DNA of 64,000 nucleotides, from IMG/VR virus record IMGVR_UViG_3300031852_000001, positions 1,107 through 65,106 of that record, one strand, 5' to 3'. Position numbers and translations under genes: made by a program. Below are positions 4,011 to 63,423 of this stretch, in pieces (positions within the stretch are counted from its first letter, which is position 1; the number at the start of each line of letters is the position of its first letter). The notes under the pieces were generated by a model. That model saw only the letters and a list, made by a program, of their open reading frames with translations. It had not been told where the DNA came from and did no database searches. Source of the DNA: a virus (Duplodnaviria > Caudoviricetes).

Positions 4011-5208
4011 GGACGATGAGGTACGGGCGATTGAAGAGGCTCACAGGGCCGCACAGGCCCGCCTGGGCATAGCCGGCGCGTACCTCGCAATGTCGGAATG
4101 GGGATCCGTGAACCCGCTGAATGCCAGTGAGTCCGGATCCTCATGGGTTGCCCGCAGCCTCATCCTCATCAACGCCATTCGGCGGAAGTCGTCCAGGCTG
4201 GCAGCTACCTACGTTCGCCTGGTGCGAGCCCTGGAGACTGGCTACACGCTGGACTACCCCGAGTACTCCGACAACCCCGACACCCTCACCCTTGGTGACC
4301 TCCGGACGCAGCTCCGCGATGTGCTGCTGGAGATTGCCAACATCGATCACGAGGCAACGGATACGGACAACGAGGCTGAGGAACGTTTCGAGGCTGAGCT
4401 ACGCCGAGCGCAGCGGGATCCCGAGCCCCGCCAGGATCGGATCAACTTCTCCGTCACAGAGATTGACGATCAGATTCAGAACTGGCTGGACAATGCCGAC
4501 GACAACGACGATGACCGGGTAACGGTTGAGGACTTTGACTGGGGCTCCGACATGGAGCCTGAGCAAATTCAAGACGCCTTCCAGAAGGCGCTGACCGAAC
4601 AGGTTGTTGAAACCTACGAGAAGCAAACAAAAGCCATCTGGCGCGACGAGGAACTAACCGGCCGGCAGGCACAAGCGAAAGTCGATAAGGCTTTCAGCGC
4701 TGCCGGATCCCTGGGTGGTGGCCGCGTTGATCGTTATGGCATCTCCGGTGGGCGTGAGGTCATTGACCGAGTAATTGCAATGGACCGCAGAGTTATGGCC
4801 TGGGCGCGTGGAACGCGGCCCAACTGCTGTGCATTCTGTGCGCTCCTGGCATCCAGGGGTTGGGTCTACAAAAAGAACGCCGGCACCCTGGCTAAAGACG
4901 CTGACGGCAATTACTACCAGGGCACGAGAAATAGAACTACCCGCGCCGGCAACGAGGCCAGCGCGGATTCATTCGATGCCAACGGCATTAGGAAATATCA
5001 CGATAATTGCAAGTGCTTCCTAATTGTCCGGTGGGTCGATAATCCCGATCTTCCCGAGCAGAGCAAAACATGGGCGAAAGATTACGCAGAGAAAATCGCG
5101 CCCAATTACAGCTACGGCAACGGAACTAATAACGCCTTGAACGCCTGGCGACGGTTATTGAATGACCAGCGCCGAGCTGACGGCACCTACGTACGAAAAA
5201 ACCGATAG
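3997..5208 (+). CDS. MuF-like minor capsid / capsid maturation protein
   Basis: CAFCALLASRG and YHDNCKC motifs; between portal and scaffold. Confidence 0.7.
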   Translation: MATSKDDEVRAIEEAHRAAQARLGIAGAYLAMSEWGSVNPLNASESGSSWVARSLILINAIRRKSSRLAATYVRLVRALETGYTLDYPEYSDNPDTLTLGDLRTQLRDVLLEIANIDHEATDTDNEAEERFEAELRRAQRDPEPRQDRINFSVTEIDDQIQNWLDNADDNDDDRVTVEDFDWGSDMEPEQIQDAFQKALTEQVVETYEKQTKAIWRDEELTGRQAQAKVDKAFSAAGSLGGGRVDRYGISGGREVIDRVIAMDRRVMAWARGTRPNCCAFCALLASRGWVYKKNAGTLAKDADGNYYQGTRNRTTRAGNEASADSFDANGIRKYHDNCKCFLIVRWVDNPDLPEQSKTWAKDYAEKIAPNYSYGNGTNNALNAWRRLLNDQRRADGTYVRKNR

Positions 5209-5224
5209 TCCCAGGAGGACATGA

Positions 5225-24769: not shown

Positions 24770-25129
24770 ATGAGTCTCATTGCAACAGCCCGTGCGATTG
24801 ACGATGCCCGCTTCGTCTGGCGCGTCAAAGCCGCTCTGCTCTCCACGGCAGCAACAAAGGTGACGGAGGCAGAAGGCCCGGAACAGTGGTTCGCTGAGCA
24901 CGTTCTGGACAACCCCATGGCTGAGAACAAGACAGCTATCGCCCTGGTTGCAGTCAATAGCGCAATCGCCAGCACCGTTGTTGTTGACGCCTTCAACACG
25001 GTCAACACTGAGGGAGTCACCGACGCCGACATTCTCTATGTCGTGGCCACCGAGTGGACCAAGCTGGCAACTCGCCACGATGAGCTGTCCAACCCTGCCC
25101 CCGCTGCTGGAGCAACAACAACCGTCTAA
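24770..25129 (+). CDS. Small virion-associated or fibre chaperone protein
   Basis: RBS AAAGGA; position after RBP. Confidence 0.55.
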   Translation: MSLIATARAIDDARFVWRVKAALLSTAATKVTEAEGPEQWFAEHVLDNPMAENKTAIALVAVNSAIASTVVVDAFNTVNTEGVTDADILYVVATEWTKLATRHDELSNPAPAAGATTTV

Positions 25130-25139
25130 GGACTAACCC

Positions 25140-25451
25140 ATGGCCGAATGGCTTCAATGGGTAGTCGCCCTTGGGGGACTCGCTGGACTCGGCGGGTTCC
25201 TCAAGGTTTTCTTTGAGCGGAAGAACAACGCTAACGCCCACTCCATAGCACTACTGGATCAGTACCAGGAGGACCGTGCTGCAGATCGGGCGCTAAACGA
25301 GAAGCTGCATACGAAAGTCGATCAGGTTCTCAAGCTGTACCACGATGAGCACGAGTACTCCACCGTCCTGCTTGCTTGGGGATTGGCCGGCGCACCGCCG
25401 CCCCCACCCCAGCGACAGCAGCGGGTCACCATCACAGCCACAACTGAATAG
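25140..25451 (+). CDS. Membrane protein (lysis accessory)
   Basis: N-terminal TM segment plus coiled coil, upstream of lysin. Confidence 0.6.
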   Translation: MAEWLQWVVALGGLAGLGGFLKVFFERKNNANAHSIALLDQYQEDRAADRALNEKLHTKVDQVLKLYHDEHEYSTVLLAWGLAGAPPPPPQRQQRVTITATTE

Positions 25452-25461
25452 CCACACCACC

Positions 25462-25493
25462 GGGAGGGCTCCTACGGGAGTCCTCCCTTCTTT
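25462..25493 (+). terminator. UACG-tetraloop terminator upstream of endolysin
   Basis: GGGAGGGCTCC-TACG-GGAGTCCTCCC-TTCTTT. Confidence 0.75.
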
Positions 25494-25510
25494 ATGCCCA
25501 GGAGGCAATC

Positions 25511-26362
25511 ATTAGCTACGTAATTGATGAATCACTGAACGACACAGAGTTCACCCCGGCCGGATCCGTTGCCGGCGTATTCGGCACACCCCGCCGCTAC
25601 GAGAGTATTACAGTGCATCACTGGGGCTCCTTCGGCCAGACGCACGACGGCATCAACGACTTCTTTGTGAACCGCAACCGCAACACTTCCGCTCACTTCG
25701 TTGCTAGCGATGGCCGTATCAACTGCCTGGTATCCCCTCAGGATGCAGCATGGGCGGCGGGCAATGCCTATGGCAATGCAACATCGATCCACATTGAGGC
25801 AAGGCCAGAGGCCACGGATGGGGATTACCGCACCGTGAGCTGGCTCATCTCATTCCTTCGGGAGCATTACGGGGCCAACCTGCCGCTGAAGCACCACCGC
25901 GAATGGTCCGCCACTGCCTGCCCTGGCAAGTGGGATCTTGCCCGCCTGGACCGCGAGGCTCGCGCGTGGAGCACTGCTGGAGCACCGGCCGCACCAACCC
26001 TCACGGTTGCACCTCAGAGCGCCACAGCGCCCGCAGCAATGCCCGGAGCTGGAGAGTTTCGCGTTGATCCAGGCGACACCCTTTCGGGGATTGCCGTCCA
26101 GTTTGGCTGGACTCTCCAGAGCATCATCGATGCCAACCCCGGAATTGATCCTAACCGGATCTACCCCGGACAGATCCTCAAGGATGGCAAGGCACCCTAC
26201 GTTGCGCCCAAGCCGACACTCCCCCCGTACTGCACTGTCGATCCGGGAGACACGCTTGGCGGCATCGCCGTCCAGTTCGGCGTGAGCCTTGAGCACATTC
26301 TGGCTCGCAACCCTGGCATCAATGCCAACCTCATCTACCCCGGCCAGCGAATCAATCTGTAA
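25511..26362 (+). CDS. Endolysin: Amidase_2 plus two LysM domains; inferred ATT start
   Basis: ITVHHWG, SAHFV, SIHIE, HHREWSATACPG; two VDPGDTL.GIA LysM repeats. Confidence 0.9.
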   Translation: MSYVIDESLNDTEFTPAGSVAGVFGTPRRYESITVHHWGSFGQTHDGINDFFVNRNRNTSAHFVASDGRINCLVSPQDAAWAAGNAYGNATSIHIEARPEATDGDYRTVSWLISFLREHYGANLPLKHHREWSATACPGKWDLARLDREARAWSTAGAPAAPTLTVAPQSATAPAAMPGAGEFRVDPGDTLSGIAVQFGWTLQSIIDANPGIDPNRIYPGQILKDGKAPYVAPKPTLPPYCTVDPGDTLGGIAVQFGVSLEHILARNPGINANLIYPGQRINL

Positions 26363-26375
26363 AGGAACTAAGTAA

Positions 26376-26639
26376 ATGGGCGAACACGTAAACGAGCAAG
26401 CACTTATCAAGGCTGACGCACTCAACCGCGCAGTCCGCACCCTTTGGCAGGGCTTCGGCTTTGACGCCGTAGCGGCCATTGGTGCCGGGACACTGATCCT
26501 GGTCAACGATATCCCCGTGGAATCTGCCCTCTTCTGGCAGTCCTTCGGAGCCCTGGCTTTGAAGTCAGTAGTGGTGTCGGCCGCGAGCTACATGGCTCGC
26601 CTGAAGCTGGCCCCCAAAACCCCTACTACTGGTGAGTAA
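26376..26639 (+). CDS. Holin
   Basis: RAVRTLWQG; two TM segments; follows lysin. Confidence 0.8.
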   Translation: MGEHVNEQALIKADALNRAVRTLWQGFGFDAVAAIGAGTLILVNDIPVESALFWQSFGALALKSVVVSAASYMARLKLAPKTPTTGE

Positions 26640-62907: not shown

Positions 62908-62980
62908 GTTGAGGTAGCTCAGTTGGTAGAGCAGCGGTCTCCAAAACCGCAGGTCGTAGGTTCGAGCCCTGCCCGCAGCG
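62908..62980 (+). tRNA. tRNA-Trp(CCA)
   Basis: Cloverleaf; GCGGT-CT CCA AA-ACCGC; TTCGA loop; no encoded CCA. Confidence 0.9.
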
Positions 62981-63222
62981 CGAAGGTTGAGTTTGCACAA
63001 TCAGCCGAACATGGTTTAGTGTATATATCGCTGGTCCTTATCAGGGAGTCCTCCAAAACGCTCCCGTCATCTTCTATCAATTTACCTACTAAACAATTGT
63101 TTGACGCGGGGGGACCAGTACATTAGTTCGAAGCTAATAGAGGTGGGGAGTAGTTACCCCGAATGCAATAAGCAACAAGGTCACTAGGAACTGAGACGCC
63201 TGGTGGCCTTTGTTGTATCCAA

Positions 63223-63296
63223 GCCCCCTTAGCTCATCATGGCAGAGCGCCGATCTTGTAAATCGGAAGTGACTGGTTCGACACCAGTAGGCGGCA
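63223..63296 (+). tRNA. tRNA-Thr(TGT)
   Basis: CCGAT-CT TGT AA-ATCGG; TTCGA loop. Confidence 0.9.
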
Positions 63297-63345
63297 CTCG
63301 GGCGGGAGGTATCCAGATAGAAACGGTACGTCCCGCCCGGATCAA

Positions 63346-63418
63346 TCGTTACTAGCTCAATCGGCAGAGCACGCGACTGTTAATCGCGCGGTTCCTGGTT
63401 CAAGTCCAGGGTGGCGAG
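63346..63418 (+). tRNA. tRNA-Asn(GTT)
   Basis: CGCGA-CT GTT AA-TCGCG; TTCAA loop. Confidence 0.92.
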
Positions 63419-63423
63419 CAAAC

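Follow-up and report, generated by a model that had tools for sequence, protein, structure and literature searches.

The locus analysed here raises the question of where a phage endolysin begins when the first canonical start codon of its reading frame lies within the sequence coding for its catalytic domain. The window, by which we mean the whole stretch of DNA that was analysed, represents 64 kb of a virus record of 65,106 bp that carries direct terminal repeats and is rated complete. A frame on its + strand is open from 25448 to 26362 behind an in-frame TGA stop codon (25445-25447), and the first canonical in-frame start in the ORF list is GTG 25613. The first-pass annotation of this DNA had proposed that the endolysin starts at ATT 25511 instead, with no ATG, GTG or TTG in frame between the stop at 25445 and GTG 25613, a ribosome binding site (RBS) 5 nt before ATT AGC TAC GTA and a terminator just upstream. 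Each of these observations was recovered: the ORF list and the translation agree on the absence of a canonical start, the sequence reads AGGAGG (25500-25505), a CAATC spacer and then ATT AGC TAC GTA from 25511, and a scan found a hairpin at 25462-25487. The elements of the region are as follows.

24770-25129: gene of an upstream protein of 119 aa, matching PHROG 31181 (unknown function)
25140..25451, + strand: ORF of an upstream protein of 103 aa with a hydrophobic N-terminus and a Pro-rich tail
25462..25495, + strand: intrinsic-terminator-like hairpin (stem 25462-25487) with T-rich tail, from the scan and RNA folding
25500-25505, + strand: Shine-Dalgarno sequence AGGAGG, read directly, 5 nt before the proposed start codon
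25511..25513, + strand: proposed ATT start codon of the endolysin, aligned with the starts of relatives
25511..26362, + strand: proposed endolysin coding sequence, 283 codons plus stop, from translation, Pfam, PHROG 4018 and annotated homologues
25592..25930, + strand: Amidase_2 catalytic domain, residues 28-140, from Pfam
25613..25615, + strand: GTG coding for V35, apparently a false start in public gene calls (249-aa product)
26060..26182, + strand: first LysM domain, residues 184-224, from Pfam PF01476
26234..26356, + strand: second LysM domain, about residues 242-282, from Pfam and PHROG stretches reaching residue 283 and the secondary structure of the model
26376..26639, + strand: putative holin of 87 aa with a hydrophobic central segment, an ORF 13 nt past the lysin stop
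62908-63419: genes of tRNA-Trp (CCA), tRNA-Thr (TGT) and tRNA-Asn (GTT), near the right end of the window

The gene of the 103-aa protein ends 59 nt before the ATT codon, the terminator lying in between, and its product has no family match in Pfam or PHROG. Together with the gene at 24770-25129 it is placed between a 1355-aa tail fibre gene and the terminator, an arrangement that is syntenic in relatives, and the two genes might be part of the lysis or the tail module. On the other side of the lysin, the gene at the position of the 87-aa ORF is annotated as a holin in Arthrobacter phages HunterDalle and Hum25, and the sole family match of this ORF is a PHROG of unknown function; we infer that it encodes the holin.

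A stretch of 55 open codons without a canonical start has an estimated chance of about 6% and is not rare by itself, and the AGGAGG motif is present in 22 copies in the window, 5 of which precede canonical starts, so that it is not diagnostic by itself either. Because both features are unremarkable when taken alone, the case for an ATT start rests on the comparison with relatives. A crude scan of the window for other genes devoid of a canonical start returned none that was convincing; the gap at 4011-5224, considered as a second start-less gene, was rejected as it holds an ordinary ATG-started ORF.

Family assignments were made on the translated frame. The lysin matches Amidase_2 (PF01510) with 46.7 bits (cut-off 26), residues 28-140 aligning with profile positions 3-131 of 131, and LysM (PF01476) in two stretches with 90.4 bits (cut-off 20.9). 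Its match to PHROG 4018 (amidase/lysis) has an E-value of 5e-57. Four residues, H36, E96, H129 and C137, do not vary among 43 homologues and have their counterparts in the alignment with XlyA (3hmb), where H36 falls on the histidine of the 'ITVH' motif. From what is known of PlyL and XlyA, Bacillus enzymes with the same Amidase_2 His, His, Cys and Glu set, we take these residues to be the Zn-binding His/His/Cys and the catalytic Glu. In an AlphaFold model built from the 43-sequence alignment (mean pLDDT 89.5), residues 1 to about 31 have a pLDDT of 89-94, a helix spans residues 17-24 and the first strand spans residues 32-37. The best Foldseek match of the model was XlyA 3rdr (153/153 columns, TM 0.64 normalised to the target), and PlyL, PlyG and AmpD were also matched by fold. 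Catalytic-domain identity amounts to 41-63% with phage enzymes and to about 21-24% with solved structures. As predicted from sequence and model, the lysin is an N-acetylmuramoyl-L-alanine amidase with two LysM wall-binding domains, and its N-terminus, hydrophilic in the translation, folds into the catalytic domain in the model. GTG 25613 corresponds to V35, within strand 32-37 and adjoining the invariant H36. Since V35 sits in strand 1 beside H36, a product starting there would lack part of the fold; the modelled strand and the XlyA alignment both agree with the earlier view that a GTG on the catalytic ITV-HH strand is an implausible start.

Relatives of the lysin identified by tblastn are Arthrobacter phage endolysins (223/397 records), and its best cellular match lies in a prophage of Arthrobacter sp. 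B2a2-09 (70% identity). Because the relatives sit in Arthrobacter phages and in this prophage, the host is most likely an Arthrobacter or a member of a close Micrococcaceae genus, as judged by protein similarity. Close relatives are few in the metagenomes and genomes that were scanned. A megablast of the lysin region against the phage collection gave no match, the relatives in that collection being related at the protein level only, and a scan of viral contigs for the RBS pattern matched the contig of L007 only.

When the lysin genes of these relatives were aligned, their start codons converged on one position. An IMG/VR contig (L007/L021, 58% amino acid identity) carries 'gcccaggaggcaatc' exactly as in the window, followed by ATG in place of ATT. 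ATG is likewise found at the codon equivalent to 25511 in L020 and L022, and AGGAGG-cacc-TTG ends at this codon in L019, L029, L030 and L031; in the Arthrobacter prophage L006, a TTG lies one codon downstream of it. The block 'gcccAGGAGGca' is kept in L007, L017, L018, L019, L020, L029 and L030, ahead of ATG, TTG, ATT or ATC. Curated SEA-PHAGES endolysins (HunterDalle, Hum25 and Swim) begin at most 2 residues from the position of 25511, and in phage Rings, whose amidase forms an internal part of a longer protein, the similarity opens at the same 'VIDES' motif. Furthermore, the lysin is in exact register with PHROG 4018, its residues 11-199 corresponding to profile positions 11-199. The presence of ATG or TTG at the same codon behind a shared RBS and the PHROG 4018 register thus designate 25511 as the start codon, and the alignment of homologues that had been suggested as a check, ATG against ATT, places the ATG, TTG, ATC and ATT codons of the relatives all at this position. 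We conclude that the endolysin is very probably translated from AUU at 25511; the start proposed in the first-pass annotation is well supported by the comparison.

ATT is not confined to the window. In L017 (JGI 3300046160, lysin 84% identical in amino acids) the region reads AGGAGG-caatc-ATC ACT TAC GTA ATT GAT GAA, and in L018 (Logan ERR9903783, 78% amino acid identity) it reads AGGAGG-caaacc-ATT AGT TAC GTA ATT GAT GAA. Both come from other studies than the window and were found through public gene calls that looked truncated. L017 has ATT at the equivalent of 25613, and its first canonical in-frame start is the ATG of codon 46, past the Zn-binding histidine. In a maximum likelihood tree computed from the codon alignment after removal of the start codon, (L018_ATT,(window_ATT,L017_ATC)) group together as a clade (95/99 support), the other members lie 0.22 and 0.32 substitutions per site away from the window along the branches, and the nearest outgroups have TTG or ATG. 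As the three ATT/ATC lineages form one clade, the non-canonical start had a single origin and was then retained, rather than recurring independently; inside the clade, ATT (window and L018) and ATC (L017) have been exchanged.

The same comparison allowed us to examine the codons between ATT and GTG. According to Nei-Gojobori counts, codons 2-34 of the window and L017 differ by 10 synonymous changes and 1 non-synonymous change (pS 0.40, pN/pS 0.03), and those of the window and L018 by 9 synonymous and 2 non-synonymous changes (pS 0.36, pN/pS 0.08); in the rest of the catalytic domain (codons 35-150) pN/pS is 0.19-0.28. Since the changes in codons 2-34 are almost all synonymous, the stretch between ATT and GTG must be translated, and these counts show purifying selection on codons 2-34 within the ATT/ATC clade. 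A single T-to-G change would restore ATG, yet ATT has been retained, and is therefore not strongly harmful. It is to be noted that the persistence of ATT/ATC is tolerance and no proof of selection.

All of this presupposes that the ATT codon is genuine. A sequencing or assembly error hiding a true ATG could be suspected for two reasons: the window is a metagenome-derived viral contig that was compared with contigs only, and a close relative with the same RBS does have ATG. Read evidence for ATG had been proposed as a check on the ATT start, and this check, run on assembled contigs, which a minority ATG variant could escape, shows ATT. A Logan contig from run X1, the probable source sample assembled independently of the window record, presents 0 differences to the window over 25100-26400 at a depth of 13.6, and JGI contig L016 from a second sample (3300031548) has the same sequence as the window throughout the region. 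The truncated 249-aa call (P0002/P0122) is found on at least 8 contigs across JGI, ENA and Logan assemblies; such a call arises only if an upstream canonical start is absent, and its recurrence therefore speaks for ATT. Additionally, a contig of run X10 (2024 soil study, about 93% nucleotide identity) has ATC instead of GTG 25613 and, among the differences listed, none at 25461-25545, which suggests that it carries ATT as well. Diverged relatives from other studies, as described above, carry ATT and ATC. Because the X1 assembly, L016 and the recurring 249-aa call agree, an assembly error is extremely improbable.

Accepting the codon as ATT, we considered whether the protein could nonetheless start elsewhere or not be made. 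Translation from GTG 25613, or from further downstream, would give an N-terminally shortened enzyme, and this codon is both the first canonical in-frame start and the start of the public call P0002. Against it, a Shine-Dalgarno sequence is absent upstream, the loss of residues 1-34 would take away a helix modelled with confidence as well as half of strand 1, leaving the Zn-ligand H36 as residue 2, the codon itself is missing in L017 and in the X10 contig, and such a start would not account for the strong purifying selection on codons 2-34; we give this start almost no credence. Other initiation sites do exist, namely ATC 25508, ATT 25523, CTG 25535 and, if combined with a frameshift, the out-of-frame ATG 25527. 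ATC 25508 is a second near-cognate codon in frame, shared by the window and L017, but it lies 2 nt from the Shine-Dalgarno sequence and is ACC in L018; ATT 25523 and CTG 25535 are 17 and 29 nt away from this sequence, the frame of ATG 25527 stops after 3 codons with no slippery site evident, and the ATG and TTG codons of relatives are situated exactly at the 25511 position, which makes initiation at any of these sites very unlikely. About as unlikely is that the ATT represents a loss of function, that is a start-codon knock-out in a decaying or silenced lysin of a temperate phage. Such a reading would accommodate the single substitution that separates ATT from ATG, the very poor initiation at AUU in E. 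coli (10.1101/063800) and the position of the gene behind a terminator. The whole gene, however, including codons 2-34, is under purifying selection in the ATT/ATC clade, three lineages separated by 0.22-0.32 substitutions per site have retained an intact frame and all catalytic residues, and the genome is complete with its terminal repeats. Initiation at AUU 25511 thus remains our preferred reading.

Two further observations concern lysin alleles in the sequencing runs. Run X1 holds a second, L007-like phage with the same lysin RBS and an ATG start, on a contig of 204 bases at a depth of 8.8, so that ATT- and ATG-type relatives co-occur in one rhizosphere sample. In runs X3 and X4 the start codon is not spanned by any contig, and these runs were kept outside the ATT evidence. 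A contig of run X3 matches the window at 25430-25507 (terminator and Shine-Dalgarno sequence), diverges exactly at the start codon and continues past the RBS as 'CC ATG ATT ATT GAC GAA TCC CTG AAC GCA'; the contig appears to be a mosaic, joined at the RBS, of the same upstream module and a different, ATG-start lysin allele.

How the lysin would be expressed from such a start can be outlined from the elements upstream. The hairpin has 11 pairs (8 G-C) and a loop of 4, is followed by the tail TTCTTTAT and reaches z = -3.8 in RNA folding. A hairpin and a T-tract directly 5' of the lysin RBS are also present in L006, L007, L017-L020 and L029-L031, and the stems of relatives differ in sequence (GGGAGGGCTCC.., TAGGGGGCCTC.. 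and GGAGGCCCCG..); this recurrence suggests a conserved terminator or attenuator before the lysis cassette. With a hairpin located directly upstream there is no space for a promoter, and transcription of the lysis genes therefore probably depends on reading through the terminator. In the resulting transcript, the AGGAGG motif, a perfect Shine-Dalgarno sequence 5 nt upstream, would direct initiation at AUU 25511, a near-cognate codon that would be read by the initiator fMet-tRNA, so that the protein should begin with Met. IF3 would discriminate against the AUU complexes and reduce the output to a small fraction of that of AUG, and terminator read-through would represent a second damping step on the lysin. 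Together, the AUU codon and read-through probably keep the amount of endolysin low, which would be either tolerated, little enzyme being needed, or mildly favoured.

The weakness and IF3 sensitivity of AUU starts, invoked in the first-pass annotation, are established knowledge (10.1101/063800; PMC5472188). AUU and AUC give 1-2% of the AUG output in E. coli (bioRxiv 10.1101/063800), a value that may differ in Arthrobacter; in the actinobacterium Streptomyces, a non-canonical start is repressed by IF3 (PMC5472188), and mRNAs with AUU compete poorly in vitro at low temperature, under nutrient limitation or in the presence of ppGpp (PMC5499595). In the sister lineages the weak TTG is favoured at the same codon and GTG is found in none of them; the use of TTG fits with low initiation being tolerated or preferred. 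A search for a special initiator tRNA encoded by the phage found only the genes of tRNA-Trp, tRNA-Thr and tRNA-Asn.

The RNA fold of the start region was also considered. A CCUUCU motif is predicted to pair weakly with the Shine-Dalgarno AGGAGG (25486-25505), and a 7-bp A/U-rich hairpin to cover the AUU start (25509-25530), where the third base of the start codon forms a U-G pair (ATT) or, in L017, a C-G pair (ATC), and where ATG would give a G-G mismatch. The pairing is too weak, and the sequences showing it are too few, for a function to be proposed. Likewise, the distance of the lysin-holin junction varies from -1 to about 27 nt without any pattern that would distinguish ATT/ATC from ATG/TTG lineages, and a loss of translational coupling was dismissed.

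An AUU start is proven for infC of E. coli, and we examined this gene in 19 genomes (L032-L050) of the genus of Arthrobacter sp. B2a2-09. The arrangement AGGAG-7 nt-ATT AGC GAG CCA AGA ATC AAT GAG is present in 19/19 genomes of the genus in which infC was found, and IF3 homology opens at the ATT (Ile) codon. The likely host thus appears likely to start its essential infC routinely at a Shine-Dalgarno sequence followed by AUU. In-frame TTG codons are located upstream of the infC ATT and could mislead gene callers. ATT AGC are the first two codons of both infC and the phage lysin, a match that may be due to chance.

This parallel lends itself to a more ambitious reading, in which the AUU/AUC start is an adaptive sensor through which the translational state of the host (IF3, ppGpp, nutrients and temperature) gates lysin synthesis and hence lysis. 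The codon does persist in the clade without reverting to ATG, host infC uses AGGAG-ATT and shares its first two codons with the lysin, AUU competes poorly in vitro at low temperature, under nutrient limitation or with ppGpp (PMC5499595), and repression of a non-canonical start by IF3 is known in an actinobacterium (PMC5472188). However, persistence is explained equally well by near-neutrality, the infC match may be fortuitous, and the second codon is ACT in L017 and AGT in L018. Moreover, in canonical holin-endolysin systems it is the holin and not the level of endolysin, usually in excess, that sets the timing of lysis, as textbooks describe. We therefore regard a sensor role as unlikely, and the coupling of the codon to lysis timing and IF3, put forward in the first-pass annotation, as doubtful. 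It is just as hard to credit that selection keeps AUU/AUC as a physiological gate copying the logic of the host infC initiation region (AGGAG(G), short spacer, ATT AGC). Should such a gate operate, endolysin synthesis would follow temperature, the ppGpp level and the IF3-to-ribosome ratio of the host, cells that translate poorly would be spared lysis until recovery, and soil phages would have a translational route to delayed lysis.

Several known systems can be set beside the lysin. Like it, infC and pcnB of E. coli and infC of Streptomyces (ATC) and Arthrobacter (ATT) combine a Shine-Dalgarno sequence with an AUU/AUC start that is conserved in relatives. Streptomyces infC, which starts with ATC, is an example of the infC type, whose start is routinely mis-annotated by automatic procedures, as is that of the lysin (PMC5472188). 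The difference is that the AUU of infC closes an autoregulatory loop in which the product is itself the discriminating factor, whereas the lysin is a lytic enzyme with no known translation feedback. In sigR of Streptomyces, also actinobacterial, conserved and mis-annotated, a non-canonical start lowers the output (PMC5472188), but this start is GTC, the gene is a host regulatory gene and its repression by IF3 has been proven by experiment, while the case of the lysin is comparative. Also close to the lysin are the Arthrobacter phage endolysins HunterDalle gp21, Hum25 gp23, Swim gp25 and Rings gp41, which are Amidase_2 enzymes annotated with ATG or TTG starts; these phage endolysins resemble it in having their N-terminus in the same place and in being followed by a small, putative membrane protein. 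The Phage Annotation Guide lists TTG, CTG, ATT and ATC as alternative starts (PMC8785237) and, as a general statement only, describes ATT and ATC as rare phage starts missed by gene callers. Our literature search did not uncover any endolysin described as having a conserved AUU/AUC start, although one may exist beyond its reach. AUU and AUC starts are thus a known, rare kind, to which the lysin adds a phage lysis-gene case documented by comparison.

Every public gene call that we examined for the clade was wrong at its 5' end. P0002 is truncated and starts at V35, P0008 is truncated and starts at an internal GTG, and P0009 is truncated to codon 46; the calls for TTG-start relatives (P0015 and P0016) are over-extended upstream through the terminator. 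The truncated calls remove part of the catalytic domain, and cloning based on database entries would express inactive fragments.

For the phage, the retention of ATT/ATC indicates that a lysin can be kept, across substantial divergence, on a start codon expected to give a few percent of the output of AUG, which bears on how much endolysin a phage really needs. The likely host genus uses the same combination of a Shine-Dalgarno sequence and ATT for infC as the phage does for its lysin, and the lysin would offer a tractable system for studying IF3-dependent start-codon discrimination during infection.
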